The notes: a model not told the origin generated them from the sequence alone. A stretch of DNA of 64,000 bases from an uncultured bacterium (GCA_964597815.1 CAZQZN010000002.1:82679-146678), one strand, 5' to 3'. Counted from the first letter of the stretch, positions 19,456-62,368 are shown. Numbers and translations: made by a program.

Positions 19456-19459
19456 AAAA

Positions 19460-19951: not shown

Positions 19952-19964
19952 AAGGAGGAAAGCA

Positions 19965-22291: not shown

Positions 22292-22294
22292 AAA

Positions 22295-23929: not shown

Positions 23930-23938
23930 GGAGATAAG

Positions 23939-24838
23939 ATGAACAGAGCCTCGTGGCAAAAAATTTTGTTAGTGATATTGTTTTTTGCGGCAATAAGCTG
24001 GATTTCATATAACTATCTGCTAAAGAGTAAATTTGAAGAGCTGTCCAAACTCAAAAAATCTTTCGAGGATTTAAACGCCGAAGTATCTTCTTTGGGGGAA
24101 AAGAATGTTCAACTTGACACTGAGTCAATAAATAAAGAAATTGCCAAAAGATTAAGCGAAATAAGTGAAAAAGCTCCAAGCGAAGTCGATCTTCCATATA
24201 TCATCGAAAAGTTTATATTTGAATCTTTAAAAGGGCTTGACATAGAATATACATTTGTTCAGCCGCAACAAGCAGTAAAAGAAGATTCTTTCAAAAGAGT
24301 ACCAATAAATATTGATATATCCGCAAAATTCGAACCGCTTACCCAATATATTCAGCGTTTAGAAAATATGCCTTTCACCATAAGAATCGACAATATGGAT
24401 ATTTCAAAATCGCCGGAAGTATTAGATAAAAACGGGCAGAAAATAGAGGATTCACAAACCTTAATCGTTAAGCTAACGATATCTCTTTTTGCTATGCCGG
24501 GAGGAACTTCTACTCTCGGATCAGTTGAATCAACACCAAATATTTCACAAATACCATTAAATAACCCATTTTTTGAGAATGAGTTTTCGTCCAAAGAAGT
24601 GAATATTAGTGCGCAAAAATATAAAACACCTGTAAAAACAAAAAGAACAAGGCCAAGAAAAATTTATCCAATTTTAAAAGGAATTTACAAAGGCGAAACG
24701 ACAAAAGCTTTCATAAATGATAGCATATATGGAGTGGGAGATATTATTAACGGTTACATTATTACGCAGATTGCTGATAATTTTGTTGTTCTAACAAAAG
24801 ATGGGAAAGCATACACACTAAAATTAGGAGGAAAATAA
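23939..24838 (+). CDS. PilO-like protein, possibly fused to a PilP-like C-terminal beta domain
   Basis: 299 aa. N-terminal TM plus coiled coil (PilO-like). The C-terminal IYKGETTKAFINDSIYGVGDIINGYIITQIADNFVVLTKDGKAYTLKL resembles the PilP beta-domain. Confidence 0.55.
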   Translation: MNRASWQKILLVILFFAAISWISYNYLLKSKFEELSKLKKSFEDLNAEVSSLGEKNVQLDTESINKEIAKRLSEISEKAPSEVDLPYIIEKFIFESLKGLDIEYTFVQPQQAVKEDSFKRVPINIDISAKFEPLTQYIQRLENMPFTIRIDNMDISKSPEVLDKNGQKIEDSQTLIVKLTISLFAMPGGTSTLGSVESTPNISQIPLNNPFFENEFSSKEVNISAQKYKTPVKTKRTRPRKIYPILKGIYKGETTKAFINDSIYGVGDIINGYIITQIADNFVVLTKDGKAYTLKLGGK

Positions 24839-24839
24839 T

Positions 24840-45159: not shown

Positions 45160-45777
45160 TTAAGTTTGTTCAATCTTCCGAACAATTCCAAAAATATTTG
45201 AAATGTGCAATGGCCCAAAATGCCTGCTATCATACATACTGTTTCTATTATCTGCCAAAACAAAAAGATGGTATTTTGGTATTCTTAATGGGCTCATATC
45301 TTTTAGAGTTCCCAAAGTGTTATATGGTTCTTCTAATATTGAATCGTTTATAAATATACGGCCATTGCTAAATGATATCTTTTCTTTAGGAAAACCTATA
45401 ACCCTTTTTATATACCCGAGATCGTCAATAGGATTCCAAAAGCATATTATTTCAAACCTTTTAGGCAATTTTGGATCAAAAAAACCGCCTAAATACTTAA
45501 CAAAATCATAATAAACTCTATCACCCTCCTTTACATTTGGAAGCATACAAGTTCTTTCAATTAAAGCGTGGCTGCCTTGATTAGGAACATTACAGTATGC
45601 TCTCTGAATGAATTTATACACCAGCCCTTTGATTTCAACATTGGGTCTTAAAATTATCCCATCATCGCTAGTTTTTCTTGCCTTATCAACCATCTTTAGC
45701 GCTAATGGATATCTTCTTTGAACAAAAGAAATAGGAACAATTTTTCTAACCAATGAATTAACAATATTTGAAAACAT
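45160..45777 (-). CDS. S26-family signal peptidase I homolog (atypical, no N-terminal TM anchor evident)
   Basis: 205 aa. Box D IKRVIGFP (Lys) and box E LADNRNSMYDSRHFGPL are present. Box B is interrupted (GSHALIERTCMLP). The N-terminal 40 aa are not hydrophobic. Confidence 0.65.
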   Translation of the reverse strand: MFSNIVNSLVRKIVPISFVQRRYPLALKMVDKARKTSDDGIILRPNVEIKGLVYKFIQRAYCNVPNQGSHALIERTCMLPNVKEGDRVYYDFVKYLGGFFDPKLPKRFEIICFWNPIDDLGYIKRVIGFPKEKISFSNGRIFINDSILEEPYNTLGTLKDMSPLRIPKYHLFVLADNRNSMYDSRHFGPLHISNIFGIVRKIEQT

Positions 45778-45902: not shown

Positions 45903-47015
45903 CTAGTGAGTCCCGTTATTTTTATCTATTTCAAGTTCAAGCATCTTTTTAGCCATTTTTGGCGTAAAGTTAATCAATTGACTTTCATTGTTCCACCATC
46001 TACGGGGCCACCAGTGAATGTAATTAAGATTGTTGCCGTCAACTTCAATTCCATTATTTGCAAGTAGAGTTCCTAACACTTCTGAAAATTTTTGTTTCTT
46101 TTTATAAATTTCAAGTCCCTCATAATCATTGCCAAGCAACTTTTTCTGTTTTAAAATTTGTTCTAATTCAGATCGTAAATAACCATATTCTTTTAAATTA
46201 AAAATATCATCTAATTTCACATATTTTCTAAGATTTGAAAAATACTTAAGCGAAATTATTTTATTTCCATCAATATCTTTTGTTTCATCACTTAGAAACC
46301 GGTCAATTATCGGCTTATTTAGTTTGGAAGTATCAAGATTCCAATTGTTTTCTTTTGATAAAAGCTCTATGACCCCCTTTATTACAAGAGGTTTATTTTC
46401 GTCCGAAATATCAGCAAAACCAGATTCTGGATATTCTTCCCCCATTACTCTTGTTAAGGCATTTTGATATTTCGACGTTATAAGTGATTGAATTTCTTTA
46501 AAAACTCCTCGGTTTTCATCTTTATTTAAATCATCAAATGAAATTTCAAAACTGTCTTGCAAAGTAGATAGAATACTATAATCATTTGAAGAACCTTTAT
46601 TATCAACGGTTTCCGTACTCGTAGCAGCAGAATTTTTAGAAAATTGTTCAGGATTAGCGTTGCATTGATCTTCAATAGAAGTTTCTTTTTTCACTTCACT
46701 TGATTCAGTATCAGAAGCGGTTTGTTTAACTTGGACAGAAGCCTTTTTGCATTCTTTTAATGATTCAACATCAATTCTTAATTCCATTCCCACTTTCAAT
46801 TTTTTGGGATCTATCCCACCGTTGTCGGATTGAATTTTTTTCCACATCATCTCAACATTCAACGATTTGTCTCTTAAAATGAAATCCTTCACAGCCCTTG
46901 AAATTTCATAAAGAGTATCCCCTCTCTCAACTTTTATCCTATATTGCCCATTATCCTGAACAATTCTTGGCCCTATTTTATCTGATGTATTTGCAACCCA
47001 GCTCATAATTATCAT
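45903..47015 (-). CDS. LysM-domain protein (N-terminal LysM, C-terminal region unknown)
   Basis: 370 aa. YRIKVERGDTLYEISRAV...LNVEMMWKKIQSDNGGIDPKKLKVGMELRI fits the LysM consensus. No signal peptide. Last gene of the giant-protein operon. Confidence 0.55.
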   Translation of the reverse strand: MIIMSWVANTSDKIGPRIVQDNGQYRIKVERGDTLYEISRAVKDFILRDKSLNVEMMWKKIQSDNGGIDPKKLKVGMELRIDVESLKECKKASVQVKQTASDTESSEVKKETSIEDQCNANPEQFSKNSAATSTETVDNKGSSNDYSILSTLQDSFEISFDDLNKDENRGVFKEIQSLITSKYQNALTRVMGEEYPESGFADISDENKPLVIKGVIELLSKENNWNLDTSKLNKPIIDRFLSDETKDIDGNKIISLKYFSNLRKYVKLDDIFNLKEYGYLRSELEQILKQKKLLGNDYEGLEIYKKKQKFSEVLGTLLANNGIEVDGNNLNYIHWWPRRWWNNESQLINFTPKMAKKMLELEIDKNNGTH

Positions 47016-47027: not shown

Positions 47028-50000
47028 TTACACTCCTAAAGCAGGATTGTAATGATAATAACTTTGATCAATTCTGTGATACGCCAAAATTTTATCGTCA
47101 GATAACAACTGTGCCATCTGTGGAGTAATATATTTTACATCATATTTTGTCGTTGTGAAAAACCCGGACAACCCCTTGTTTTTGGTTTTAACTTCTTTAT
47201 TGTTTGCAGACAGCAATAATCCAATCGCCTGAGATATTACAGCAGTAAATACATCATCTGACAAAGAGTCAATGTCAATATTAGAATCTAACCCCATATC
47301 TTTTAATGCCCACACCAAAGCCCCTTTTCTTTTAAGGATCTCAATAAGTTCTGAAGAAATATTTTGGTAGTTTCTTATCTGATTTACTGCTATCGTTGCA
47401 TCTTTAATGCCTGCTAATTCTTTAAGCGAAATGTTTGGCTTTATCAACTGTTGGCTTTCAAAGATATCATACAGAAATTTTACAACTACGAAGTTAAAGG
47501 AAATTAGATCTTGATCTGAAATTTGCCAATCTTTCTCTTCAGCTAATTCCTTTATAGCAAAACCTACAACAGTTGCAAATTTTTGTGGGTCAGAATTTTC
47601 AAGTTCCTCAATTGTTTTTAAGCCAAATTTTTCAAGGGCTTTTTCTAATGCACAAGAATTAGTTAATGCTTGTTTAGTTTCATCCCAAAGTTTTTTATAA
47701 CTTTTCAGTGTATAAATGTTTACATCATCTAAATTTATACCAATTCTTCTTAGAAAAGCAATTTCAGCTGGACTTTTCTTTTTGGATAAATTTGAAAGAC
47801 TAAAATAATTATTATAGAAAGCCTCCATAATAACGTTCGTATCACTTGCATTTAAATTTACCAGCATTTCCCTTGTTTCTTCAGGCAGATGTTCAAATAT
47901 AAATTTATTTGCTTCTTCTAAAAATTTTTTGTTTTCGGCAATCATATCTTCTTTTGTTATAACAGGAGAGATCCCCGTTCGTTTCCAAAATTCATCGGGA
48001 GAATATTTGTTTGCCAGAGATGGATCTTTAAAGTATTCATCCATCATATTTCTTACAATCAAATTTTCATTGGAATCTATCATTTTCACAAACTTTTGAA
48101 CAGTGCCAGAATTATAAACCAACGGCAAACGGTTTTGAAAAGTTTCTCTTTCTCCGCTTTGTTTTGATACAAGCCATCTCCAATTAGGACAAATTTTGTC
48201 AATATATTCTTCCTCAGTATAATCCTTTCTCCAAGCGCCTTTTCCAAATAATAAATTTAAATTTTGCATCTCTTGCCCAACAACTTTTTCTGTTGTGCCC
48301 TGAACCAATGTGACGCCTAAATATGTTGTGTCCTTATTTTTGTCGAGTGTATTTATAGTTGTACCCAGAATATTTTTATACCCAAGCCGTGAAAGAAGAA
48401 TTATATCTTCAGCATTAAAATTGAATGCCTTAACTTCTAATTTGCTTGAAATTTTTTGTAAAATATCTATTGCTTCCCTTTGATCTGTTATAGCTGTTCC
48501 ACCAGTATTAATTGTTCCAGATATCCATCCTCTAAGAGAATTTTTGACTCCAATTAACTTATTGCTATTTTGTTCATTTTTTGATATATCATCTAAGATT
48601 TCAAGAATCTTGTTTTGCTGATCAATAGTCTGATAAAAAACTCCTCCTAAAAACCCTATTCCGCCAGCAGTAATAGCAATCGGAGCAATTGATAATGCGG
48701 CGGCAGAAAAGCCATAAGTTAAAACCCCGGTTCCAAGACCAATTCCACCACCTCCAGCAACAGAGGAAACAAATGAAAGTGTATAATCTTTCACATTATC
48801 ATCAGTTGTACGGCCATTATTAAAACCATTCCTCGCAGCAAAGCCAGCAGAAGCTACTGTAGCAAAAACAGCTCTGGGTGAAATTGCCTTTGAAAAAGCT
48901 TGTGGCAATAGTTTTTCAACAGTAGAAGAAGCTATTGCTGATGAAAATTTGGATTGAATTATATTAGAAATATATCCAGACAATGATGAAATATGTTCAA
49001 TTGCCTGTGGATTTGAAAACAAATATTGAGACAACATATTTAAATTAGATAACCCATCAATATATTCAATCTTGCCTTCTGAAAATTGTTTTACTTTGCC
49101 GTTTTCTCCTAAATACTCCTCATTTAGCCAATTTATCAATGTTGCCTCAAAAGCTTTTCTGGAAGCCATATTTATACCTACGCCGGCAGATGTCCTTGTA
49201 ATAAATTGAGCAACCTCATTATTAAACGGAATCTTCAAAGTAGCTAATAAAATTTGTGGTGCTTCAAACAACATATTTGATACAGAGCCTTGAAGCATTT
49301 TAACAGTCATCATTTTGTAATAATATTCCCTCAAATATGGATTATTACTTGCCATTAAATCTTTATTCTTTTTGACATTTTGATCATAATATTGAGTAAT
49401 CAGCGGATCAACATCACTCTCAGCCCAAGTTATTGCATCATCCAACAATCCAGAAACAGCCATTGCCGCCAAATTAGTTCCTGTAAAATTAATTTTTTTG
49501 ATAACAGACGCTTTTTGCCATAGCTCCAAATTAGAATAATTTGTTCCCCAAATTGAGGCGCTAATATAATCTTGAATTAAATTGTCCCTTGCCGCAAAAA
49601 ATGCTCCTCTGATTGCAGATTCCCATGCCCTTTCAAATGATTGAATCCAATAATCCTTCGTTTTTATATTGCTAAAACCATTATTATATAGTTCCGGTAT
49701 TAAATTAAAAACCAGTAAATCCATTGCAAATCCCATCATGCCACCTGTATCAATTGATCTGGAAGCATCTTTTGCAATTGAATCACATAGGCCTCGTATT
49801 TTTGTGCTCATATTTTTTACTCTTTGACGAAAAGTCAACTTTCCATCGCCTTCAACTTGTTCAGTAGGAAATAAAAAACTAGTAGCAAATTCAGCTAACA
49901 CATGTGAATTTTTTCTTCTATCTTCTTCAGTCATATCGGAGAATTTTTCTCTGTAATAAATCTCAAAGATTTCATGCACAACAGCGCTGGCCAATCGTCT

Positions 50001-53000
50001 TTGGCCTTTAATTGTTAACTCCCCATTATTTATGTCAACTGCAGATTCTCTTAAATAGATTGTATAAATATTTCCTTCTTTAATATAAAAAGCATCGCCT
50101 TCAATACCCAATTTTTTGAAATCCTCATCAGTAAGCAATTTTACTGAACCTATTTTTTCATCAATATCTTTTGGTAAAAATTTGGCATCAGCAGCTTTTA
50201 ACCCATCCAAAAGCATTTTCACCATTTCAAATTTTTGAGGATCGTTAACTGGCGTAAGAGACTCTATCTTTTCTATAGGAACTTTTTCCCCAGATTGCGC
50301 TCCATCTGATTTTCGCTCTCCTTCTGGATTTTTCCCGGCAGCAATTTTTTCTACATCAGTTTCTGTTGCACCTGATCTTTTTTGCTCATCTAAATTAGGT
50401 TTATTCTTAAATTGTTCAACATCTTCCTTGCTAACAACCAACTTAATTCGATTAAAAACTCTGCCCAGATTTGACGTTCTATATAAATATTTAAAAAGTT
50501 CCTTCTGTATATTTTGCATCATTTTTTGTTTTGCAGTATTAATTGTTTCCTCAAAGATCCTTAATGCTTCCGCTTCACTTTTTTCGCCAACAAATTTTGA
50601 GTTTTGAAAATCTTTAAGTGCTTTATCAATATCCTCCATGTAAATTGCATAATGTTTTCTTAAAATTTCCTGAACTTTGTACTGCCAATAATCAACATTA
50701 GGATTTAGAGAAGGAGTGTTTGCATTTTTATGAAAAGACGGGTCGTTGCCAAAATAATTGCTATAAATTTCGAACAGCTTTTTTGAAATAACCTCTTTAG
50801 CAGTTTCCACATCTATACCTTGAAGTTCTTTTAAATCAACTGTCCGGCCGCCGAGCAATTTCGAAAATATAGTCTCAAGCTGTTGTCGCTGCTCCAAATT
50901 TATTATTTGAGAATTTTCTGTTAAGTTACACTCTTTTAATATTTGTTCCGTGCTGACTTCTGAAAACGTTTTAACAAATTCTAAACCTTTCATAGATGCG
51001 TCATACAGCTTTTTATAATCTGCCAAATATTTTTTGTTTATATCATATAATCTATTTAAAATTACTATCGCTTTTAATGCTTTTTCCCTGTGCCTTGCTA
51101 GCGCAATATTAACAAGATTATCTATAGCTTCTCTTGCTTCTTTTGTTTTTCCTTCTCGCGAAAGATTATCTATAGCTTCTCTTAGTATTCTCCTTTCGTC
51201 CTCTGTTAATATTGAATATATATAATCTTCTGGTGAAGAGTAAACAATTGAAGAGCCCCTATCTCCTTGTCTTCCACTTCTTTTAACTTTTTGTGTAGTC
51301 CATCTTTGAGAAGAATCCAACTCGGTTGTTATTACGTGCAAACCGCCATTACTTTTTGAATTGTCGTAAAGTTTTATATTATCCAACAGTGTTTCTATTT
51401 CTCCTAACTTTATATCAGTACCTCTGCCAGCAGTTGTTGCAACCGTAATAACATAAGGTTCACCTGCATTTTCAATTATTTTTTGTCCCTCCTGTTCAAC
51501 ATTTTCAGCCGTTAATACCTGGATTTTTATTTTTCCTTTCTCACCTTTATTTAATCTTTCTTCGATGAGTTGTGCTATTTTTTTAGCCTCATCAATTGTA
51601 GACGCTGCTACTAGAATCGGTCTCCCTTTTTTAGCTGTTGAAATCGCGTCATCAACAATAGCGTTCATCTTACTTTCGCTATCCGAAAAAAACTTTGTTG
51701 GATTTCTATCAACAGAAACAAACAAACTTTTCAATCTTTTCAATCTTTCAGATATGTCCCCATTTTTAGGGCTAATTTCTCCTTCAATTTCTTTTACAAT
51801 TTCATCTATTAAACTCTTAGTGAGATTAGGATCCCCAGTACAATTGATTATCTTTATATTTTCTAAAGGATCATCAATTAATTTTTCTACACTATTTTCT
51901 TTGCTTTGTATGCGTTGCTTTATATATTCTTTTATTTCTTTTTTCACAACGTCAATTTTTGATTTGTCAGTTAATTCGAATTCCTTCAAATAGTTTGGTA
52001 ATTTTGCTAATTGTGCATCAGAAAGATAGCTTCTAATTATTTCCCAATCTTCAATTAATGTGCCTGAGAAGCCCCCAATTCTCTCGTATTGCTCTAAAAA
52101 ACCTTTAATTACTATTGATGCAAGAATCTTTTGAGGAGGGACAATTTTCAATCCCTCAACAAGTCTAATTGCTTCATCCATTCCATCTTCCCACCTCATA
52201 CCGTGCATAGGGTGCCCTTCATCGTTGATAATTATTATGTTACCCCCCTCAACTTTATATTGATATTGTTTAGAAAGAGGACTATTTGGGTCGTTTTTTA
52301 TTATATAAGCTACTGCAATATTTTCGATTCTATTAATTTCTTCAACCAAACTTCCCGATTTGGAAATTCTTTCCTTTAAAAATTCTTTCCCTTTATCAGT
52401 CAATTTCCCCTCTTTATCAATATACTCCTTACTAATTTCACCATTCTTAAGAAAAAGTTTCTTAAAATTTTTATAAGAATTTTTCCAAAGTTTTTCGTAT
52501 TGGCCTTCAAGTATCTTTTGAGTAACGGGATTTAATTCCAATTGTCCCCCTGAAACTATAAAAGGTGTTGTTGCTTTATCAATCAACAAACTATCTGCTT
52601 CATCAACGAGAATTGCCTTGTTTTTTGCATCAATTATCTCTGGTGGTATTTCCCCCGAAATTGCATCAAAAATCAATGTTTCTGCTCCAACAACAATTGG
52701 ACATTTATAAGCTTCAATTTTCTCTTCAAGAGACATGTTGCTTGTAATAATGGCAAAATCTTTACCTTTTACCAACCCCATCCTTTCAGCTTCACCTGCC
52801 CAATCCCTTACTAATGCATCATTTGAAGTCATAACATGAATGCCTTTTCCTTGTTTTCTAAGATGTTTGGCAAACAAAACTCCAATTATAGTTTTCCCTT
52901 GACCACAATCAATATTCAGAAAAGAATTTTTCCCATTTTCTAATGCTTTAAGTGCTTGAATCTGATTATCATGTAATTCAACAATAGGTTTCCCATTTTT

Positions 53001-56000
53001 ATCTTTTGGCACTAATGACTGCCAGACTTTTCTATCTTCATCATCAATATGAGGAGGATCTATAACAGATTTTCGGATTTCATTTTCATCAGGAGTGGTT
53101 TTAAAATCTACACTTTTTAAAGTTGATTTTTTTAATTGTCCTAATTGGTCTTTTATTTTTTCATTTGAATCATAATCTATAGGCAAATACAAAACTGCTG
53201 GCTGTTCCGAATGAATATTTGATGCTTCACTCGTTCTTAACTGAACAGCTGGATCTTTTATGCCTTCTAAAAGCCTTATTTCAACTATTTTCACAACAAC
53301 ATCATTACCAAATTCATCCCTAACAACTAATTTAAGAGAATTGTCATTTGAATCATAAAACTGGCTCAATATTGATTTCCCATTCTTTGTATCATATAGT
53401 AAATTTAGAAGTTTAAAATTAGCGCTTAAAGATCCCTCACCAGTAGAAGCAACTTTTGAAATGTCGCCATCAATCAATATAATAACGCCATTGTTGCTGT
53501 TTTTGTCAACATCTCCCTTATTTTCAACAAAACTTTTCGTAAAGATTTCTTGTTCAAATGTAAAAGATGAAGCAGATACACGCAATGATGCTGCGGCTTT
53601 TTTTGTTGTTTCATTGGCTTCTCTCCTCAAGTTTATTCGCTTTTTAAAATCACTTATATGATGCCGAGACCTGTTTGCTGCCCAATCTAAAGAATAATCT
53701 AATTTGGCAACAACTTTAGAAGCAATTCCATTAGATTCATACGCCTTATTATATAGAAATCCAATAGGATTAATAAAAGTATAATAGGGTACCTTGACCA
53801 AGCTACCAACTCTTGTTTTTGCAATTTTATTATAAATTTTTTGTTCAAATCCAATCCCCGGCAATCCTTTAACATAGTTTTCTATGAATGGTATTTTGCT
53901 GAGTAAACGAACTACTTCAGTATAGGGTTGAATTGTTCTGCCCCAAATCGAGTTGTAACCACCCATCATCGTGAAAAAATTAGCAGCCCAAAACATTCCT
54001 AAAAATGTAGATATATTTCCTTCTTTTAATTCCTGAATTGACTGCATATACCAAAGCGGCGGATATCTATACAAAAAGAAAGCTATTGGAACTTTTACAA
54101 GTGAGCTGGAAATTTCAGACAAAGATTTACGCCCCAATAAAGCTTTTGTAATATCCGAAGCAGCAGAAATTGGTAAACCAAGAAATATATAATATGGTAT
54201 AAGTATTCTCATTTGAACTTGCATAGCAAATATTTGTTTCGGCACCTCACCCCAATTTTTTTGTAAATCATCATAAATAGCTTTCATCGCAGAAATTATT
54301 GGATGGTTCCGATCTTTTTCTGATAATTTATCCCAAATTTGCTTAAAAGTTACTGGATCAAACATTTGAAAATAATGGCCAAAAAAACCGGAACGGTTCA
54401 ATCCGTTTTTTATATTAGAGGAAAATGTATCGCCGAAACTAATACTCTCGCTTTGTAATAGTTCTTTTCTGTATTCTAAAAGAACCTTATAGATATCATC
54501 TTTTGGCTTAATATCCAATGGTTTAGAATAAGAATTTTCATCTAGGTTTTTCCCTATAATTGAAATACAATTACCCAGTTTATCCATTAATTCATTTGGA
54601 AAGCCAATTTTTTCAGCAAGGTCTTTCAATAACAATAAATCTTCATAAGTCAACTTATTTAATGAATCTGATTTTTTATTAGGAGACAAATTTAAACAAA
54701 GAGTTTTTAAGTCCGCCACAACAGAATTTGGATCATATTCTTTGAATATACTTAAAAAATTGTTTAGCCCTATTATTTCAAACAGACTATGGCCTGTCAT
54801 TTTGATATTTGGCATATCAAAATTAAAAGATCCATCTTCCAACTTATAAGTGAACATTATTACACTTGAAATAGCTTGTTTAATATCATTTATTGTTTTT
54901 ATTTGACTCTCATTTAAACCAAGCCCTTCAAACTCCGATGTCGTCAGGTTTAGAGTGGCAAATCCTCTCAACTTCCATAATTCATTCAATTTATCATTGC
55001 CCATATCAGAAATGATTTTATCTGCATTCTTAAAAACACAAATCATGTCTTGAAAGCTTCGTTTGAATCCAAAATTATCAGTAATGTTTATGCCAAAAAG
55101 ATTTTTGTTCAGTTCAGAAGCAATCTTTTCAATGTAGTTTACAAAATTACCGCTGGATATTTTTCCGCTTAACCAGTTGTAAAGATCAGGAGTAATTGTA
55201 TAATTTTGCAAAAAGTCATTTATCGCATCCCTTTGAGCAATTAACGATTGTTTCTTTTTTTCGCCTAAATTATTCTTTTGTAATTGCTGATTGATGTCTT
55301 CCAGTGTTCCTAAAAGTCCTGTTTCTTTAGCATAAAGGTTTTTCAATGCTATTACTTGATTTTTCTCCGCTACTAAAGTTGGGGCATTTGAAATGGGCGG
55401 ATCAACACGCCACCACTCGTTTCCAAATTCAACTGGTATATGATTAGTAATTTTTATGTAGTTTAACAAAGGAGCAAACACGTCGGGATGAGCTGTTAGT
55501 TTGTCAATATTAAATTCAGTTCCATCTTCAAATTTATTAATAAACTCTAATATACTCTTCGATTCTTCTTCCGATAATCCAACTTCAACATCAGGTCTTA
55601 TTGTCCAATAAACCAAATTCATCTTATCTTTATATGGAGATTCTGATAAAGAACTAATGTGTTGTTTAAAAGCAATAAGTTCATCGTTATTGAAAACAAT
55701 TTTCTCTTTTTCTCCTTTATTCATTCCGACTTGCAAAAGTTTGTTTAAAACGTTCTTGATTTTTTCTTCTCTACAATTTTTTATGTCTTCAGAAATTTGT
55801 TCTAACAATAATTCATCTGCGCTTAAATCATAATGAACATAAGGTTTATTAACTTTTAATTTTTCTGCCAAATACGCTATATCTTCTTTTGTTAAGTAAT
55901 TTGGGAAAATATTTGCTGTATTAGGAGAACTAGGAATATTTATTCCTTGATCTTTGAGAATTTTCCTAAATAAAGATAATGGAGCTATCAAACTTGTCTG

Positions 56001-57677
56001 CTGTTGTGTATGAGTGCTGATTGTTGACTCACTCTTTATTTCTGGATCAGGAACAACCTTTACATTTTCCGGATCTATATCCGAAGGTCTAATAGGATTG
56101 AGTGTTTCTAGATCTATTATTATCGTAGCATTACTTGACTTCTTTAGCTGTTCAATAGGCCCTACTTTTTTAGGATCAAACGCAAGGTATATTTGAGGTG
56201 AGTTAATCATGCTAATTAAAAAGTTATAATCCTCAGGTGATATAGTTCTTGGGTTGGCATCATTATCACCCACATCAATTGTCAATATTTTTTCCAATCT
56301 ATCGTATCTTGTCTTGTTTTGTGGATCAATATTTCTTAAATAGTTTATTATTGCGGAATTAATATTTTCATAGTTTAGCCCACTTATTTTCTTCTTCATT
56401 TCTACTGCCAAATCCGAAGCAAAAAATCTTGAATAAACAGTATATCTATATCCTTGGACATTCTCTTTGGAGTATTTTTGAAGTTCTTGGACTAATTTAT
56501 CATTCACTTCTAACAATAAAATCGTTTCATTCTGTGAATTGCCTCTTGAAGAAGTTAAAAAATCTCTCTTATTTTCAGAAATAAAACCCAACAAAGCAAA
56601 GGCAGTTTCATTATCAAATTTGCCATCAATTTCATGTGAAGGATGCAAATAAACAAATTTAGTATATGGGGATTTAATGCTTTTAAGAATTTTCTGAATG
56701 TTTTTAACCCACTCCTGACTTTGAGATAAATTAAAACCAGCATATTTTATATCAACTTTTTCATTTTTTTCATTATCCTTCTCAACGATTGACACACTTA
56801 AAATTAAGGCCCTATCGCTTTTAAAAAAACCAAGCAACTTATTAAAATCTTCTTCAGGATTTCCTTCAGAGTTTGTCTTTTTATATAATTCAATCATTCT
56901 TGGTTTCGCTGATTGTAGATAGTTGACACAAGCGTCCTTCCCTTGTTGAAATAATTTCTCAAAAGCTCTCTTTTTTATTTCTTCCAATTCTATTCCAGCA
57001 CTAATTTTGCTTCGAATTTCATCAGGTATATTTGTATCGTTTAATAACTTTTTAACTTCATCTATTTTCCCCAACTCATGAAGTTGAGCAATCAATATCA
57101 TCATCATTTTATTGAATGATTCTTGAGTAATCTTCTTTCCATTTGAATATTCCTTCAATTTTTCTATCGCTTCGTTTATCCCTTTATCATCAGCTAACTT
57201 CATAATCTCTTTTTGAGTCTCCAAATCATTAATGCGATTATTGATAAGTTCCTTACCATACTTTAACAGCTTGTTTATTTTTTCGTCTGAAAGCAATTTT
57301 TTCAGTTCTGCAATGAAACTATCAATACTTTGATCATCAAATTTTTGAGATTTTATTTTTGAATCAACATAAAGCAACTCATATTGTTTTCTACCATCTT
57401 CAGTCAAATAATAATCTGGATAATTTTTAAATATTTCCTCTAATAAATTTACTACCTCATTATATTTGTGGGAATTATATAATTCACCTACAAATCTTAG
57501 TTTGCTTGTAATTTGTTCCTCGAGAAACTCAAATGGCCTTTCTATAGAGCTTATTCCACCAGATTTGATCGGTCTTTCGTTAGAGGATGGAGGGGTAGAT
57601 ATTTCTCTTCGATCACCTGGCTTTGGGACAGCAGGGGGTAAATCAAAACTTTTATTTACTTGTGATATCCCTGTCAT
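47028..57677 (-). CDS. Giant (3549 aa) multidomain protein with an internal complete SecA-like ATPase core (NBD1-PPXD-NBD2-HSD)
   Basis: Single uninterrupted ORF. Residues about 1560-2250 carry SecA-like motifs. These are Walker A NIDCGQGKT, GKGIHVMTSNDALVRDW, Walker B/DEAD-box region AILVDEADSLLIDKATTPFIVSG, a PPXD-like segment (GHPMHGMRWEDGMDEAIRLVEGLKIVPPQKILASIVIKGF), GFSGTL, NBD2 ATTAGRGTDIKLG and GGLHVITTELDSSQRWTTQKVKRSGRQGDRGSS. The flanking regions of about 1550 aa and about 1300 aa have no recognised domains. No N-terminal signal peptide. Confidence 0.85.
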   Translation of the reverse strand: MTGISQVNKSFDLPPAVPKPGDRREISTPPSSNERPIKSGGISSIERPFEFLEEQITSKLRFVGELYNSHKYNEVVNLLEEIFKNYPDYYLTEDGRKQYELLYVDSKIKSQKFDDQSIDSFIAELKKLLSDEKINKLLKYGKELINNRINDLETQKEIMKLADDKGINEAIEKLKEYSNGKKITQESFNKMMMILIAQLHELGKIDEVKKLLNDTNIPDEIRSKISAGIELEEIKKRAFEKLFQQGKDACVNYLQSAKPRMIELYKKTNSEGNPEEDFNKLLGFFKSDRALILSVSIVEKDNEKNEKVDIKYAGFNLSQSQEWVKNIQKILKSIKSPYTKFVYLHPSHEIDGKFDNETAFALLGFISENKRDFLTSSRGNSQNETILLLEVNDKLVQELQKYSKENVQGYRYTVYSRFFASDLAVEMKKKISGLNYENINSAIINYLRNIDPQNKTRYDRLEKILTIDVGDNDANPRTISPEDYNFLISMINSPQIYLAFDPKKVGPIEQLKKSSNATIIIDLETLNPIRPSDIDPENVKVVPDPEIKSESTISTHTQQQTSLIAPLSLFRKILKDQGINIPSSPNTANIFPNYLTKEDIAYLAEKLKVNKPYVHYDLSADELLLEQISEDIKNCREEKIKNVLNKLLQVGMNKGEKEKIVFNNDELIAFKQHISSLSESPYKDKMNLVYWTIRPDVEVGLSEEESKSILEFINKFEDGTEFNIDKLTAHPDVFAPLLNYIKITNHIPVEFGNEWWRVDPPISNAPTLVAEKNQVIALKNLYAKETGLLGTLEDINQQLQKNNLGEKKKQSLIAQRDAINDFLQNYTITPDLYNWLSGKISSGNFVNYIEKIASELNKNLFGINITDNFGFKRSFQDMICVFKNADKIISDMGNDKLNELWKLRGFATLNLTTSEFEGLGLNESQIKTINDIKQAISSVIMFTYKLEDGSFNFDMPNIKMTGHSLFEIIGLNNFLSIFKEYDPNSVVADLKTLCLNLSPNKKSDSLNKLTYEDLLLLKDLAEKIGFPNELMDKLGNCISIIGKNLDENSYSKPLDIKPKDDIYKVLLEYRKELLQSESISFGDTFSSNIKNGLNRSGFFGHYFQMFDPVTFKQIWDKLSEKDRNHPIISAMKAIYDDLQKNWGEVPKQIFAMQVQMRILIPYYIFLGLPISAASDITKALLGRKSLSEISSSLVKVPIAFFLYRYPPLWYMQSIQELKEGNISTFLGMFWAANFFTMMGGYNSIWGRTIQPYTEVVRLLSKIPFIENYVKGLPGIGFEQKIYNKIAKTRVGSLVKVPYYTFINPIGFLYNKAYESNGIASKVVAKLDYSLDWAANRSRHHISDFKKRINLRREANETTKKAAASLRVSASSFTFEQEIFTKSFVENKGDVDKNSNNGVIILIDGDISKVASTGEGSLSANFKLLNLLYDTKNGKSILSQFYDSNDNSLKLVVRDEFGNDVVVKIVEIRLLEGIKDPAVQLRTSEASNIHSEQPAVLYLPIDYDSNEKIKDQLGQLKKSTLKSVDFKTTPDENEIRKSVIDPPHIDDEDRKVWQSLVPKDKNGKPIVELHDNQIQALKALENGKNSFLNIDCGQGKTIIGVLFAKHLRKQGKGIHVMTSNDALVRDWAGEAERMGLVKGKDFAIITSNMSLEEKIEAYKCPIVVGAETLIFDAISGEIPPEIIDAKNKAILVDEADSLLIDKATTPFIVSGGQLELNPVTQKILEGQYEKLWKNSYKNFKKLFLKNGEISKEYIDKEGKLTDKGKEFLKERISKSGSLVEEINRIENIAVAYIIKNDPNSPLSKQYQYKVEGGNIIIINDEGHPMHGMRWEDGMDEAIRLVEGLKIVPPQKILASIVIKGFLEQYERIGGFSGTLIEDWEIIRSYLSDAQLAKLPNYLKEFELTDKSKIDVVKKEIKEYIKQRIQSKENSVEKLIDDPLENIKIINCTGDPNLTKSLIDEIVKEIEGEISPKNGDISERLKRLKSLFVSVDRNPTKFFSDSESKMNAIVDDAISTAKKGRPILVAASTIDEAKKIAQLIEERLNKGEKGKIKIQVLTAENVEQEGQKIIENAGEPYVITVATTAGRGTDIKLGEIETLLDNIKLYDNSKSNGGLHVITTELDSSQRWTTQKVKRSGRQGDRGSSIVYSSPEDYIYSILTEDERRILREAIDNLSREGKTKEAREAIDNLVNIALARHREKALKAIVILNRLYDINKKYLADYKKLYDASMKGLEFVKTFSEVSTEQILKECNLTENSQIINLEQRQQLETIFSKLLGGRTVDLKELQGIDVETAKEVISKKLFEIYSNYFGNDPSFHKNANTPSLNPNVDYWQYKVQEILRKHYAIYMEDIDKALKDFQNSKFVGEKSEAEALRIFEETINTAKQKMMQNIQKELFKYLYRTSNLGRVFNRIKLVVSKEDVEQFKNKPNLDEQKRSGATETDVEKIAAGKNPEGERKSDGAQSGEKVPIEKIESLTPVNDPQKFEMVKMLLDGLKAADAKFLPKDIDEKIGSVKLLTDEDFKKLGIEGDAFYIKEGNIYTIYLRESAVDINNGELTIKGQRRLASAVVHEIFEIYYREKFSDMTEEDRRKNSHVLAEFATSFLFPTEQVEGDGKLTFRQRVKNMSTKIRGLCDSIAKDASRSIDTGGMMGFAMDLLVFNLIPELYNNGFSNIKTKDYWIQSFERAWESAIRGAFFAARDNLIQDYISASIWGTNYSNLELWQKASVIKKINFTGTNLAAMAVSGLLDDAITWAESDVDPLITQYYDQNVKKNKDLMASNNPYLREYYYKMMTVKMLQGSVSNMLFEAPQILLATLKIPFNNEVAQFITRTSAGVGINMASRKAFEATLINWLNEEYLGENGKVKQFSEGKIEYIDGLSNLNMLSQYLFSNPQAIEHISSLSGYISNIIQSKFSSAIASSTVEKLLPQAFSKAISPRAVFATVASAGFAARNGFNNGRTTDDNVKDYTLSFVSSVAGGGGIGLGTGVLTYGFSAAALSIAPIAITAGGIGFLGGVFYQTIDQQNKILEILDDISKNEQNSNKLIGVKNSLRGWISGTINTGGTAITDQREAIDILQKISSKLEVKAFNFNAEDIILLSRLGYKNILGTTINTLDKNKDTTYLGVTLVQGTTEKVVGQEMQNLNLLFGKGAWRKDYTEEEYIDKICPNWRWLVSKQSGERETFQNRLPLVYNSGTVQKFVKMIDSNENLIVRNMMDEYFKDPSLANKYSPDEFWKRTGISPVITKEDMIAENKKFLEEANKFIFEHLPEETREMLVNLNASDTNVIMEAFYNNYFSLSNLSKKKSPAEIAFLRRIGINLDDVNIYTLKSYKKLWDETKQALTNSCALEKALEKFGLKTIEELENSDPQKFATVVGFAIKELAEEKDWQISDQDLISFNFVVVKFLYDIFESQQLIKPNISLKELAGIKDATIAVNQIRNYQNISSELIEILKRKGALVWALKDMGLDSNIDIDSLSDDVFTAVISQAIGLLLSANNKEVKTKNKGLSGFFTTTKYDVKYITPQMAQLLSDDKILAYHRIDQSYYHYNPALGV

Positions 57678-57690: not shown

Positions 57691-59307
57691 CTAACTATTT
57701 AAAAATTTCATCGCTTTCTCGTAATCATCTAATTGGCCTTTAAATGGGTTGTCAAAACTGTTAAAATAAGCGCTTAACTTTTTGAAAAACTCAGAATTGT
57801 CTTTATTTAATTCAACTAAAGATTTCATACTTTCAGTAATTTCACTATTTTTACTTTTTGCATTTTCTCTATCGGCTTCAGGTTTATTAGAATCATTCAA
57901 AATTTTTAAGTTTTCATTAAATTGGCGAATCAAACTTACGAAATTTTGCACACTTGCATCAACAGATGTAGTTTTTGTCACTTCAGTTTTTAACTGCTCA
58001 TACATTTTTTGTAGTTCTTTGGCATATGGATTATCAGCAAACCTTATCAAATTATAAGCTGCTTCAAATTTCAAGTTAATTTTGTTTTCATCTAATAAAC
58101 CTTCTTTTTCTAAAATCTCAAAGAACCTTTTAACTTTTTCTTCTGGATTTGTCAACTTGTCAAACTCATCCTTGTGTTTTTCTCTAATTTCATCAAGTTT
58201 GCTCTCTCCAATTTCATTAATTAAAGAGTCCATTACATAACTAGAAACTGTACTATTCATCAACGATGCCAAAACAATTTTTGTTTGTTCATCTTTTGAA
58301 AGTTCTGAAATTTTTCTACCATCAATGAGCGGCGCATTACTTCCAATATTTACTATTAAATTGAAGTACTTTTCAAATATATTTTTCGTGATCTTATAAT
58401 CACCAAGAGTAAAAACGATAGGAGAATTATCAATATAAGGATTATTTTCAATTGGGTTGGTTGGATCAATGGCCTGTGGTCTAATTCTTGATGTTGTCAA
58501 ATTATCTTTCGCAGCATTAGCAACAGATGAATCATTAGCAGTTGATCCAACTAGCAAACTTCTATTATCAGTTGTTACTTCTATCCCATATAACTCAAAA
58601 ATATTCACATTTATTTTGTTTGATAAAATTAGTGCCGTTAGAATTGTCTTTTGATCGCTTTCTTCAATATCTTTGAAATCTTTGGCTTTTAATCTCTGGC
58701 TTATTTTATCTAAAATCAGCGAAATGTTTGTATTATTGCTGCCCAAAATCTGAATGGCTTTTTGATAAGGATCACCGCTTAGTTTAATCCATTGCTGGTC
58801 AATGGCCGACTTTATACCTTCATATTCAGAGATGCTTATTTTTACATAATTTCCTCCACTTTTGTTATAAAGTTGTGCGGTTCTTACCAAATCTTGTGTA
58901 TTGCTTTGGTCTAATCCGATTAATTGCATAAAACCAACAACATTGCTGAAAAACAGCTCTATCTCTTGTTGTGTCAGCTTTCCATCTGATTGAGAATCCC
59001 TTTCAGATGGAACTTTCATTCCGCTGTCTATTAAATCAAAAAGTTCTTTTGAAACATTTGCGCCAGCATTTCTTAAAGATTCAAGAGTAATGTTATTTTG
59101 ATCTATTTTTTCGGCATTTCCGCCAAAAATTGTTATGAAAGAGCCAATAATCGAAGTTTCATTCCCTTGTTTGCTTTGAGCAATAGCTTCTGGCCTACTA
59201 ACATCTTGTGGTACTATAACTGTTGTATCGCGTTCAAAAGATGGTGTTTGGGAAACATACGTACCACTATTAACTGTTGGTGCTGATTGTATAGCTTCTG
59301 CTACCAT
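57691..59307 (-). CDS. Hypothetical protein (538 aa) with an EF-hand-like Ca-binding loop
   Basis: No signal peptide. The loop DSQSDGKLTQQE (aa 104-115) fits the EF-hand D-x-[DNSQ]-x-D-G-x-[ILV]-x-x-x-E pattern. 13-nt gap to the giant gene. Confidence 0.55.
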   Translation of the reverse strand: MVAEAIQSAPTVNSGTYVSQTPSFERDTTVIVPQDVSRPEAIAQSKQGNETSIIGSFITIFGGNAEKIDQNNITLESLRNAGANVSKELFDLIDSGMKVPSERDSQSDGKLTQQEIELFFSNVVGFMQLIGLDQSNTQDLVRTAQLYNKSGGNYVKISISEYEGIKSAIDQQWIKLSGDPYQKAIQILGSNNTNISLILDKISQRLKAKDFKDIEESDQKTILTALILSNKINVNIFELYGIEVTTDNRSLLVGSTANDSSVANAAKDNLTTSRIRPQAIDPTNPIENNPYIDNSPIVFTLGDYKITKNIFEKYFNLIVNIGSNAPLIDGRKISELSKDEQTKIVLASLMNSTVSSYVMDSLINEIGESKLDEIREKHKDEFDKLTNPEEKVKRFFEILEKEGLLDENKINLKFEAAYNLIRFADNPYAKELQKMYEQLKTEVTKTTSVDASVQNFVSLIRQFNENLKILNDSNKPEADRENAKSKNSEITESMKSLVELNKDNSEFFKKLSAYFNSFDNPFKGQLDDYEKAMKFLNS

Positions 59308-59825: not shown

Positions 59826-60719
59826 CTATTTCTTAAAAATGTTATATTTGCGAATCAATTTTGCCGGATGATAGCTCATCTTTGCCTTTCTAAGCCCTAA
59901 ATGGCCCATATCTTGTTCTCGATTTACATATTCGCAATCAGGAAAAGAATTTTTTAAAAATTCTCGATTAATGATTTGGGCAGCTCCCCTAATTAAAGGA
60001 TCTGACTTTTCAATATGCACTACAGCTGTGTTACTTGTCAATTTTTCGCCAAGGCTAAACCCTACAATTTTACTATTGGAAATGATTACTCCCCCTTTCA
60101 ATCCAAGGATATCTTTGTTCTTTAAGGCAATTTCCACAGCATTGGCTTCACACTCTATTAAAGGATATTCATCTGTAATGGTTGTTTTTTTCGTTTTGCA
60201 CCAAATTTCGTTCAGTTTTAGACATTCATAAATGTGAGATTTATCCATTTTTTCGTACTTAAAATCGTTGTTTTTTACAAAGTAATTTATGTGGTTCCTT
60301 TTTGCATCATATTTTCTTCCTTTTAATTCAATCAAATCACGGCTTGAATAAAGATAATCGAATTGATCCCGATCTTCTTTAATAACAAAATTTTCTGGCT
60401 CTTTCAAAAAAGATATAAACTGCTCATCTGCTCTTATTACTGCTTTGGAATGACTCAAACATATATTTAAAACTTCATCAGAATTTTCCCCAATTCCAAG
60501 CGGCATCATAAAGTATTCGTTCTTGTCCGGCCCTATAACTAATGGGCATAAAAAATCACCAATAATGGTTAATTGTGTTTTATCAATATTTTTCCAAATG
60601 TAGTAGTTTGCAAAAGTATGGTCAGAAATAAAAATGGGTCGGGCAAAATAATACTTTTCAAAGTCGTTTTTATGCTCAATTTTTAAAGGCACAAAATCAG
60701 GATAATAAGGAATACTCAC
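59826..60719 (-). CDS. DUF2156-family protein (standalone MprF/LPG-synthase C-terminal-like domain)
   Basis: 297 aa. Overall pattern and the C-terminal GHLGLRKAKMSYHP segment resemble the lysyl-phosphatidylglycerol synthase C-terminal domain family. Tentative. Confidence 0.45.
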   Translation of the reverse strand: MSIPYYPDFVPLKIEHKNDFEKYYFARPIFISDHTFANYYIWKNIDKTQLTIIGDFLCPLVIGPDKNEYFMMPLGIGENSDEVLNICLSHSKAVIRADEQFISFLKEPENFVIKEDRDQFDYLYSSRDLIELKGRKYDAKRNHINYFVKNNDFKYEKMDKSHIYECLKLNEIWCKTKKTTITDEYPLIECEANAVEIALKNKDILGLKGGVIISNSKIVGFSLGEKLTSNTAVVHIEKSDPLIRGAAQIINREFLKNSFPDCEYVNREQDMGHLGLRKAKMSYHPAKLIRKYNIFKK

Positions 60720-60811: not shown

Positions 60812-62368
60812 ATGGAAAAGAAGACCACAGATAATTGGAGCTCAAAAATCGGAGTAATACTTGCAGTTGCCGGAAGTGCAATTGGACTTGGCAATTTTTT
60901 AAGATTCCCTGTCCAAGCAGTTAATAATGGAGGGGGCGCATTTTTAATCCCTTATTTTATTTCTCTCGTGCTTTTAGGAATACCTCTTATGTGGATTGAA
61001 TGGTCAATTGGAAGATATGGAGGTATTTTTGGACACTCAACAGCACCGGGAATGTTCCAAAAACTATGGAAAACTAGATTATCGAAATATTTTGGTGTTA
61101 TTGGAATTTTTGGCCCTTTGGTCATATTTATGTATTACTTATATATAGAATCTTGGCTTTTGGGATATTGTTTTTATTCAATTAATGGCTCTTTGACAAG
61201 CATTTCAAAACCGGCTGAAATGGCATCATTCTTGGCTGGATATCAGGGTCTAGAAGTCAATAAATTTTTTAACGGCATTCAAATAGCATATATTTTTTTC
61301 TTAGTAACCTTTGCTTTGAATTTTGCAATTCTCTTTAGAGGTGTTAAAAATGGAATTGAGCAGTTTTGCAAAATTGCAATGCCTCTTCTATTTGTTTTTG
61401 CAACAATAATAATGTTCAGAGTACTTACCTTAGGAACTCCGGATCAAAATCAGCCAACATGGAATATAATTAACGGCTTGGGATTTTTGTGGAATCCTGA
61501 TTTTTCCGCATTGCTTAGCGCCAAAACTTGGCTTGCCGCCGCAGGACAGATATTTTTCACGCTAAGTGTAGGAATAGGAGTTATTTTGACTTACGCAAGC
61601 TATCTAAAAAAAGGCGACGACATTGCGCTTTCAGGATTGTCCGCTGCTTCAACAAATGAATTTGCTGAAGTCATTTTGGGAGGAACAATTGTTATCCCGC
61701 TGGCTTTTGCATTTTTTGGACCAAATGGGATACAACAAATTGCTCAAAGCGGCGCCTTCAATTTGGGATTTGTTACAATGCCTTTAATTTTTTCTAAAAT
61801 ATCTCTTGGATCAATTTTTTCATTCTTGTGGTTTGCTCTTCTCTTTTTGGCAGGCATCACTTCATCAATATCTTTGATAGAGCCAACAATTGCTTTTATC
61901 AAAGATGATTTTAATATTGAAAGAAAAAAAGCAGTTTTAATTGTTATGATCGCGGCTTTTTTGCTTTGCCAACCAGCGGTATTTTTTCTGAAAAACGGTG
62001 TTTTAGATGAGCTTGATTTTTGGGGTGGGACATTTTCCCTTGTGCTGTTTGCAACAATTGAAGTGTTCCTTTTTACATGGGCGTTTGGAATTGAAAAAGC
62101 ATGGGAAGAAATGCATAGAGGTGCGCAGTTAGAAATACCAAAGTTTTACAAATGGGTAATAAAATATATCACTCCCTTGTTTCTCATCATAATTTTGGTT
62201 GCATGGCTCATACAAGAGGGATTTTCAACTATAATGATGAAATCTGTTCCAAGAGAAAATATCTATTATGTTTTAACTACTAGAATCGGGTTGCTGATCA
62301 TCTTTTTCTCACTCGCTTTGCTTGTTAGATACGCTTTAAAGAAAAAATCTTCTGGAGAAAATCAATGA
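60812..62368 (+). CDS. Sodium-dependent transporter, NSS (SNF/LeuT) family
   Basis: 518 aa. N-terminal AVAGSAIGLGNFLRFP...GGGAFLIPY signature. About 12 TM segments. Confidence 0.85.
   Translation: MEKKTTDNWSSKIGVILAVAGSAIGLGNFLRFPVQAVNNGGGAFLIPYFISLVLLGIPLMWIEWSIGRYGGIFGHSTAPGMFQKLWKTRLSKYFGVIGIFGPLVIFMYYLYIESWLLGYCFYSINGSLTSISKPAEMASFLAGYQGLEVNKFFNGIQIAYIFFLVTFALNFAILFRGVKNGIEQFCKIAMPLLFVFATIIMFRVLTLGTPDQNQPTWNIINGLGFLWNPDFSALLSAKTWLAAAGQIFFTLSVGIGVILTYASYLKKGDDIALSGLSAASTNEFAEVILGGTIVIPLAFAFFGPNGIQQIAQSGAFNLGFVTMPLIFSKISLGSIFSFLWFALLFLAGITSSISLIEPTIAFIKDDFNIERKKAVLIVMIAAFLLCQPAVFFLKNGVLDELDFWGGTFSLVLFATIEVFLFTWAFGIEKAWEEMHRGAQLEIPKFYKWVIKYITPLFLIIILVAWLIQEGFSTIMMKSVPRENIYYVLTTRIGLLIIFFSLALLVRYALKKKSSGENQ

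Follow-up and report, generated by a model that had tools for sequence, protein, structure and literature searches.

The 64,000-nucleotide window analyzed here, from an uncultured bacterium (GCA_964597815.1, CAZQZN010000002.1:82679-146678), carries on its reverse strand a giant gene (47028..57677 (-)) that codes for a protein of 3549 amino acids (aa) with a SecA-type ATPase module in its interior. Bacteria universally use SecA as their export motor, and it nearly always occurs as a separate protein of ~800-950 aa; here, 1568 residues precede the module and ~1150 follow it. An earlier note on this DNA, made from the sequence alone, had described the gene as one uninterrupted open reading frame (ORF), and this is borne out: the ORF begins with an ATG, has 0 internal stops, and is preceded by a GAGG Shine-Dalgarno motif 8 nt 5' of the start codon. 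GC content is even along the gene (0.30-0.34), self-BLAST finds no internal repeats in the protein, and promoter and terminator scans performed no better than on shuffled sequence. Sequence and profile comparisons show that residues ~1569-2400 share homology with SecA, starting at the Q motif and running through the whole two-helix finger, and the giant is a lineage-restricted protein with a divergent but apparently active embedded ATPase.

Matches to Pfam SecA_DEAD (residues 1569-1874, E 3.2e-23) and to P-loop_SecA, covering the second nucleotide-binding domain (NBD2; residues 1995-2161, E 7.3e-27), are significant across the core. The earlier note had placed this core at residues ~1560-2250; its relationship to SecA stands, but its proposed end does not, as the module reaches ~2400. 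The NCBIfam secA model TIGR00963 matches with E 1.2e-52 and scores 179.2 bits against an equivalog cutoff of 800, and the equivalog NF009538, at 170.7 bits against a cutoff of 814, is likewise not reached by the giant. In a phmmer search of PDB, E. coli SecA (6gox, E 5.2e-43) aligns through the first nucleotide-binding domain (NBD1) with the preprotein cross-linking domain (PPXD), and then through NBD2. Comparison by hhalign of the profile of the giant and its relatives with 19 canonical SecAs gives a probability of 100% (E 2.7e-45, 660 columns), in which residues ~1570-2400 of the giant pair with columns 104-810 of the 901 in the SecA profile; column 104 corresponds to approximately SecA residue 85. 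Identity to canonical SecA (TIGR00963/PRK12904) over the motor is ~30%.

Structure prediction agrees with these profile matches. An AlphaFold2 (AF2) model of residues 1560-2470 was built from an alignment of three giants and 23 canonical SecAs, the canonical rows having been taken from a word-index search with the SecA core that missed the two other full-length giants, P0003 and P0004. The model has a mean predicted local distance difference test (pLDDT) score of 73.4 and superposes on SecA of B. subtilis and of E. coli, and all of the best 36 Foldseek matches in PDB are SecA or SecA2 (~870 aligned columns, target-normalized template modeling [TM] scores of 0.55-0.63). The same 26 sequences show no variation in the columns G, K, T, D, E, D, G, T, R, G, and D, the first six being the Walker A/B residues. 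Each full-length member of the family, three in all, retains Walker A, Walker B, and motifs III, V, and VI, including the two arginines. On the basis of these conserved motifs the module is apparently catalytically competent. That the ATPase residues are kept in proteins only 29-34% identical overall, and that the PPXD equals the ATPase domains in conservation, argues for a working motor that acts on polypeptides rather than for a relic or a helicase.

The module is organized in the same order as canonical SecA, NBD1-PPXD-NBD1-NBD2 followed by the helical scaffold domain (HSD), helical wing domain (HWD), and two-helix finger (2HF), with all of the ATPase motifs, and differs in being internal (residues 1569-2400 of 3549). 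All of the motif strings quoted in the earlier note were located, between residues 1588 and 2143. The first part of NBD1 (52530..52973 (-), residues 1569-1716) contains the Q motif, NIDCGQGKT at residues 1588-1596 with the Walker A motif CGQGKT at 1591-1596, GKGIHVMTSNDALVRDW at residues 1610-1626, and the Walker B/DEAD region AILVDEADSLLIDKATTPFIVSG at residues 1688-1710, within which lies VDEAD. The PPXD-like insert (52110..52529 (-), residues 1717-1856) contains GHPMHGMRWEDGMDEAIRLVEGLKI at residues 1821-1845 and is followed by the second part of NBD1 (51966..52109 (-), residues 1857-1904), with GFSGTL at residues 1869-1874 and motif III GFSGT at 1869-1873. An insertion of ~80 residues that is family specific and absent from canonical SecA (51723..51965 (-), residues 1905-1985; residues 346-426 of the AF2 model) lies between NBD1 (motif III) and NBD2 and is of low conservation. 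NBD2 (51207..51722 (-), residues 1986-2157) contains ATTAGRGTDIKLG at residues 2080-2092 and GGLHVITTELDSSQRW...RGSS at residues 2111-2143, with motif V as AGRGTDI and motif VI as RSGRQGD, the arginines of which are present in all members.

The earlier note described the SecA core as complete, which holds for a motor with its ATPase motifs and a PPXD-like insert, but not for the two ends. There is no counterpart of SecA residues 1-84, including the lipid-binding N-terminal helix, and at the other end the module lacks the C-terminal linker and the SEC-C zinc motif, with no Pfam SEC-C match. The PPXD itself is probably present, as judged from sequence and model, although no curated threshold is reached: Pfam SecA_PP_bind matches residues 1754-1837 with E 5.6e-4 and 20.9 bits against a gathering score of 23.5. 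The region is colinear with PPXD in the hhalign alignment, its position, size, and topology fit in the AF2 model, and it matches a maltose-binding protein-PPXD chimera (5k94) with E 2.3e-4 as a single sequence and 1.1e-5 as a family profile. Residues 1751-1850 are 42-58% identical to P0003, equal to the ATPase domains.

Downstream of NBD2 is a segment with a scaffold, a wing-like region, and a two-helix-finger-like hairpin (50481..51203 (-), residues 2159-2399). In the AF2 model a long scaffold helix of ~40 residues (~2178-2217) is followed by a wing-like helical region to residue ~2324 and a helical hairpin in the place of the two-helix finger (residues 2330-2399; helices of 30 and 32 residues), with pLDDT values of 65-87 for the scaffold and finger. 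When this region alone is compared with the SecA profile by hhalign, the probability is 91.8% (E 7e-7, 240 colinear columns), whereas hmmsearch of residues 2140-2420 alone against PDB finds no SecA. The helical-scaffold-like stretch of the earlier note is thus seen by hhalign and AF2 but not by hmmsearch or Pfam SecA_SW, and the assignment of scaffold, wing, and finger, for which hhalign and the AF2 model are the evidence, is less well backed than that of the rest of the motor.

The giant belongs to a small family. An exhaustive HMMER search with residues 1530-2470 against 1.84 billion cluster representatives returned the giant itself, then P0003 and P0004, with a sharp fall in score thereafter to canonical-type SecAs (E 1e-42); the family is thus rare, with three clusters among the 1.84 billion representatives. 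P0003 (3369 aa, 39% identity) has its SecA core at residues 1626-2549 and P0004 (4207 aa, 35% identity) from residue 1877, so the core keeps its internal position in these homologs. A fourth sequence, P0001, was found by a search with the C-terminal 1080 residues of the giant and is a contig-truncated fragment with 34% identity. These four known sequences, of which the window protein, P0003, and P0004 are full length, are colinear end to end, the full-length ones sharing an overall identity of 29-34%. Two metagenome scans with the family-specific blocks A6 and A7, and one genome-contig scan with a single protein, found no further members, and tblastn of plasmid and phage collections found canonical secA only. 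Six longer SecA representatives (P0041, P0045, P0051, P0065, P0084, and P0085) were considered as fusions and rejected, being of the SecA type with internal expansions and no other domains; all but P0085 have a SecA_SW match.

The flanks of the module (residues 1-1568 and 2400-3549) match no domain in Pfam, NCBIfam, PADLOC, or a family-profile search of PDB, in agreement with the earlier note; the only matches of the giant are of the SecA type, PADLOC gives none for it, and its sole PHROGs match, phrog_32805 (unannotated function), falls on the SecA core (residues 1569-1885). The N-terminal region (54288..57677 (-), residues 1-1130) has no recognizable domain, signal peptide, or repeats; it begins with a hydrophilic N terminus and is colinear with those of P0003 and P0004 at ~6-48% identity per 50-residue block, lowest against P0004. 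The lack of a signal peptide, also claimed in the earlier note, holds on a crude hydropathy test. Next is hydrophobic block 1 (53943..54233 (-), residues 1149-1245), with 2-3 moderately hydrophobic helices and the motifs LYRYPPLWY and FFTMMGGYNSIWGR, whose hydropathy peaks are kept in all three full-length members. The best-conserved stretch of the giant is here: residues 1201-1250, which hold both motifs, show 60-66% identity with P0003 and P0004, against 40-58% for the ATPase domains and PPXD. Block 1 is a candidate membrane anchor, and we infer from its hydropathy that it would insert in the membrane. A family-specific pre-core region (52974..53942 (-), residues 1246-1568) then replaces SecA residues 1-84; it is not alignable to canonical SecA but is conserved within the family.

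Beyond the module is a small HExxE domain (49878..50165 (-), residues ~2505-2600), with A-V-x-H-E-x-x-E at residues 2565-2572, whose A, V, H, E, and E do not vary among the four sequences. It is modeled as three strands and then a long helix with pLDDT values of 60-80, the only such part of the C-terminal AF2 model, and has no Pfam or PDB match; the shape recalls minimal zincin-like proteases with the second His replaced by Glu, and a zincin-like character is speculation. The C-terminal hydrophobic region (48624..49754 (-), residues 2642-3018) is composed of a helix (2642-2663), a conserved helical stretch, and a Gly/Ala-rich hairpin (2969-3018) with hydropathy of 1.84-2.02. The hydropathy peaks are kept in all four members, residues 2651-2900 are 52-68% identical to P0001, and this region is the strongest candidate for transmembrane segments. 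The remaining C-terminal region (47031..48623 (-), residues 3019-3549) is helical, with the conserved motif PNWR.LVS..SGER at residues 3165-3180.

The giant gene is closely flanked by genes on the same strand. The upstream partner gene (57691..59307 (-), 538 aa) ends 13 nt before the giant's start codon and codes for a protein with no Pfam match and no signal peptide; partner homologs of 594 and 716 aa are encoded immediately before P0003 and P0004, respectively. The partner was tested as a paralog of part of the giant, and this was rejected. On the other side, 12 nt beyond the stop codon of the giant, begins a LysM-domain gene (45903..47015 (-), 370 aa; Pfam LysM, E 3.8e-6) with the Shine-Dalgarno motif AGGAGG, and a LysM homolog is also present downstream of P0003; this protein too has no signal peptide. 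LysM domains bind peptidoglycan. The partner-giant-LysM gene order recurs in independent metagenomes. Following these is an S26-like peptidase gene (45160..45777 (-), 205 aa; Pfam Peptidase_S26, E 5e-23), with argF/G/H among the other neighbors near it in the window. By hydropathy, there is no N-terminal hydrophobic segment in the giant, the partner, the LysM protein, or the peptidase.

The S26-like gene follows the LysM gene in the window, lies directly after the giant in locus L001, and is a remnant in L004, the locus of P0004. Its product has Cys at the position of the catalytic Ser (CM.P versus SM.P), invariant in the three homologs (window 45160-45777 (-), L001:4295-4915, and L006:19912-20496), keeps the Lys box (IKR) and the DNR..D..R box, and is without a membrane anchor at its N terminus. 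Instead of a genuine signal peptidase, this protein may represent a soluble S26-fold variant of the Cys/Lys type. In L004, AbiEii/AbiEi and a DUF4062/HATPase/Fic-like gene are found downstream of P0004 on the opposite strand (L004:16261-19750), and a 47-residue S26-like remnant persists (L004:17914-18054), which suggests that defense genes were inserted into an ancestral giant-peptidase arrangement. In L006 (CAZHHM010000011.1), a contig from a related genome, a 2469-aa ORF with hydrophobic stretches (L006:12461-19870 (+)) lies between an SNF transporter gene and the S26-like and argF genes; it was considered as a divergent member of the giant family and rejected, having no Pfam match and an hhalign probability of 0.3%. 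The site between the SNF and S26-like/argF genes seems to hold large orphan genes of differing kinds.

The host is Margulisiibacteriota/Saganbacteria-like, judging from sequence comparisons. Among named proteins, the methionyl-tRNA synthetase (MetRS) of the window is nearest to that of Candidatus Saganbacteria (65%) and of Margulisiibacteriota (58-60%), and it is 67% identical to P0205. Of the syntenic loci, L005 is labeled Margulisiibacteriota, and L006 shares 71% identity in the SNF transporter and 66% in ArgF. An Omnitrophota host, considered from the SNF transporter matches, was rejected, since MetRS and the closest syntenic loci point to Saganbacteria/Margulisiibacteriota. The window contains the diderm markers AcrB, an outer-membrane efflux protein (Pfam OEP, TolC-like), and a secretin, and the host is a diderm.

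The reading that we favor, with a probability of about 45%, is that the giant works as an accessory export motor tethered to the membrane and serves itself and/or the other proteins of its operon. It is favored by the combination of the lost SecA ends, the conserved hydrophobic blocks, and an operon with two signal-peptide-less proteins, one of them with LysM. The hydrophobic blocks are conserved on both sides of the motor, and one of them holds the best-conserved stretch of the giant. The motor would function without SecA's N-terminal ~85 residues and zinc tail, which tie canonical SecA to the membrane and to SecB/ribosomes, and the flanking hydrophobic blocks (1149-1245, 2642-2663, and 2969-3018) would instead tether it permanently at the cytoplasmic membrane. 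The ATP-driven clamp and finger would then push polypeptide through SecYEG or through the giant's own membrane segments. Its cargo would likely be parts of the giant and/or the products of the presumably co-transcribed partner and LysM genes, neither of which carries a signal peptide.

Several observations weigh against this reading. The finger-tip motif GL(R)GYAQKDPL, which contacts SecY, is not conserved, the giant having NSKFVGEKSEAE, and Pfam SecA_SW has no match in the giant, which together make coupling to SecYEG doubtful; there is also no SecY-like gene among window ORFs of at least 400 aa, no secY2 or asp gene in the window, and no other channel gene near the giant, and simple coupling to SecYEG is further weakened thereby. 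The canonical SecA rows in the AF2 alignment may bias the scaffold and finger region of the model toward SecA. The transmembrane character of the blocks comes from a crude Kyte-Doolittle scan, in which most segments reach 1.1-1.5, and for the C-terminal 1079 residues AF2 gave an unusable model from four sequences (mean pLDDT 41.8, ~30 in the hydrophobic region). Foldseek with this poor model returned nothing below E 0.4, and both the zincin-like reading and a pore-forming role for the Gly-rich hairpin therefore stay speculation. The weak Ig/fn3-like matches of the P0004 partner, which count in favor of export as typical of surface proteins, are below threshold. The peptidase-argF pair is also found in L006, which has no gene of the giant family, and an S26-like protein with Cys and no anchor, encoded even there, lends the export reading little weight, its link to the giant being uncertain. 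A variant in which the motor is covalently fused to its own membrane conduit, formed by the hydrophobic blocks, would circumvent SecYEG altogether and carry across the inner membrane either the signal-peptide-less partner and LysM proteins or the terminal domains of the giant itself (1100 residues at the N terminus, 500 at the C terminus). We consider this SecYEG-independent machine quite improbable; if it were true, a single polypeptide would combine motor and channel, which would amount to a new kind of system for protein export and a new export mechanism, and otherwise the giant is one more accessory SecA variant.

Some of the same observations could be accommodated by a cytoplasmic remodeling or unfolding machine, or a scaffold, in which polypeptides are threaded or clamped inside the cell, perhaps in assembling a large complex or in its quality control, with no membrane translocation. 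The giant has no signal peptide and its hydrophobic segments are only weak, it lacks both the conserved SecY-contacting finger tip and the lipid-binding N terminus of SecA, there is no channel gene nearby, and the S26-like neighbor, with its Cys nucleophile and no anchor, appears to be cytoplasmic. However, such a machine would account poorly for a Gly/Ala-rich hairpin at residues 2969-3018 that is as hydrophobic as 1.84-2.02 and keeps its position in all members, or for a LysM neighbor without a known cytoplasmic ligand, and we know of no SecA relative that works as a soluble unfoldase; we regard this explanation as rather unlikely. Somewhat less likely still is a secreted or injected effector or toxin, whose C-terminal hydrophobic Gly-rich region would insert in a target membrane while the SecA-like module acts in or on the target or aids delivery. 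The Gly-rich hydrophobic hairpin and the long amphipathic helices are reminiscent of toxin domains that insert in membranes, albeit by resemblance alone; the N termini of the giant and partner are hydrophilic and Pro/Ser-rich, the giant gene in L004 adjoins defense and Fic genes, the flanks diverge fast, and SecA-like helicase-related domains are listed among Amoebophilus effector domains by Zhang et al. in 2012 (PMC3482391). But no toxin, immunity, Rhs, PAAR, or secretion-system marker is recognized in the giant or its operon, Foldseek finds no toxin fold (albeit from a poor model), and an ATP-dependent motor would be without an ATP supply outside cells. The locus is also chromosomal and syntenic between relatives, which argues against a variable toxin cassette.

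Two further explanations concern the nature of the module itself. Were it a repurposed superfamily 2 helicase or nucleic acid translocase, its likeness to SecA would reflect shared DEAD-box ancestry, and there are indeed weak Pfam matches over NBD1 to DEAD (E 1.3e-8) and ResIII (E 3e-5), with the helicases MDA5, Chd1, and Hef next after SecA in Foldseek. These helicase matches span the RecA folds only, with TM scores of at most 0.27, and the SecA matches are better by at least 20 orders of magnitude; moreover, the SecA-specific PPXD within NBD1, P-loop_SecA, and the scaffold are all present and colinear, making a helicase origin very improbable. Misassembly, raised in the earlier note as a possible source of the arrangement, would be a chimeric join of secA and unrelated sequence, and the window does come from a metagenome-assembled contig (181 kb). 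Yet three further members from other samples have the same block order and colinear flanks, P0003 was assembled identically by the Joint Genome Institute (JGI) and Logan, and base composition is uniform. The SecA part is also only ~30% identical to any canonical SecA, which argues against a pasted housekeeping gene, and an assembly or annotation artifact is effectively ruled out.

The suggestion of the earlier note that no family with an entire internal SecA core had been described was not borne out, with internal modules reported by West-Roberts et al. in 2023 (bioRxiv 10.1101/2023.11.21.568195) and fusions by Kamneva et al. in 2015 (PMC4452313). In the former study, internal divergent SecA_DEAD and SecA preprotein-binding domains are present in most Omnitrophota giant proteins (>30,000 aa), including those of the Archaeovorin and Dockerin types, and in some Actinobacteria; the modules are without SecA_SW, adjoin membrane segments, and co-exist with a normal SecA, and Margulisbacteria are listed among phyla rich in very large genes (bioRxiv 10.1101/2023.11.21.568195). 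These authors propose that the modules export the giant itself, the same idea as is favored here. The likenesses are several: SecA_DEAD and PPXD-like domains are in both cases internal to a very long ORF without Pfam SecA_SW (as also in P0003 and P0004), membrane segments are predicted beside the motor in theirs, with the conserved hydropathy peaks at 1149-1245, 2642-2663, and 2969-3018 as candidates here, and both have an N-terminal region without an identifiable domain. The host of the giant presumably also has a normal SecA, as do those of the West-Roberts giants; there is no canonical secA in the 64-kb window.

The differences from those giants are also substantial. At 3549 aa (3369-4207 aa in the family) the giant is at least ~10-fold smaller than proteins of >30,000 aa (genes of >90 kb), and its host is not of the Omnitrophota or Actinobacteria but Margulisiibacteriota/Saganbacteria-like by MetRS. 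Unlike the West-Roberts giants, the family has no glycosyl hydrolase, peptidase, dockerin, or adhesin domains, its Pfam matches being of the SecA/DEAD type only, and it is accompanied by conserved operon partners of its own. Its motor appears less divergent than their modules, apparently keeping the scaffold and two-helix finger by hhalign and AF2, the West-Roberts giants having been compared by description. Omnitrophota and Actinobacteria giants are absent from the 150 best representatives, in which canonical-type SecAs follow the three family clusters. Internal SecA modules have thus been described already, and what differs here is the size, the phylum, the lack of enzymatic or adhesin domains, the apparently fuller motor, and the conserved three-gene operon. 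The phenomenon is extended to the Margulisiibacteriota/Saganbacteria lineage, and a compact protein of ~3.5 kaa should be more tractable for cloning and structure determination than Omnitrophota giants of 30-85 kaa. With an apparently less degenerate motor and a simple operon with candidate substrates, the family could be a practical model for the purpose of SecA modules in giant proteins, with or without SecYEG.

Other accessory SecA proteins are more distant in organization. The likeness to SecA2 systems is one of concept, both having a second divergent motor that probably serves a small dedicated set of substrates encoded nearby, some of them without classical signal peptides; however, SecA2 of Gram-positives and mycobacteria is a stand-alone protein of ~780-800 aa, whereas the host here is a diderm. 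SecA2 equivalogs (TIGR04221, TIGR03714, and TIGR04397 among them) are not reached by the giant, which scores 169, 121, 133, and 112 bits against 725, 930, 1085, and 1100. Secondary SecA_DEAD proteins of Planctomycetes, Verrucomicrobia, and Proteobacteria have type I secretion-like neighbors (PMC4452313), and like the giant they are extra SecA-derived ATPases of Gram-negatives with SecA_SW absent or reduced, demonstrating fusion and co-option. They are stand-alone proteins of ~600 aa (such as P0192, 605 aa, 'translocase') rather than a module in a giant, and their neighbors are HlyD, Peptidase_M50, and GAF, whereas those of the giant are the partner, LysM, S26-like, and argF/G/H genes. The SecA-NACHT-TPR fusion of Treponema azotonutricium (PMC4452313) has identifiable NACHT and TPR domains, in contrast to the giant, whose flanks match nothing.

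Several other features of the window are of note. Four ORFs, 5050-7536 (+) (828 aa), 19890-21143 (+) (417 aa), 35735-36940 (-) (401 aa), and 36886-38184 (-) (432 aa), have no Pfam match at the thresholds applied. A gene pair coding for the SNF-family transporter and an LPG_synthase_C protein (60812-62368 (+) and 59826-60719 (-)) is kept in L002 and L005. Many metagenome-assembled genomes of Omnitrophota and 'Planctomycetia' have genes with 60-71% identity to this transporter, such that it is either unusually conserved or exchanged between phyla. Resistance-nodulation-division (RND) efflux genes are located at 7.8-13.4 kb, ~34 kb from the giant. A complete type IV pilus/type II secretion-like cluster (13994-26144 (+)) lies ~21 kb from the giant with housekeeping genes between, and codes for PilB/GspE, PilC/GspF, a PilT-like ATPase, two pseudopilins, a PilM-PilN fusion (544 aa), PilO, and the secretin; type IV pilus/type II-like clusters have been noted near giant genes (West-Roberts et al., bioRxiv 10.1101/2023.11.21.568195).

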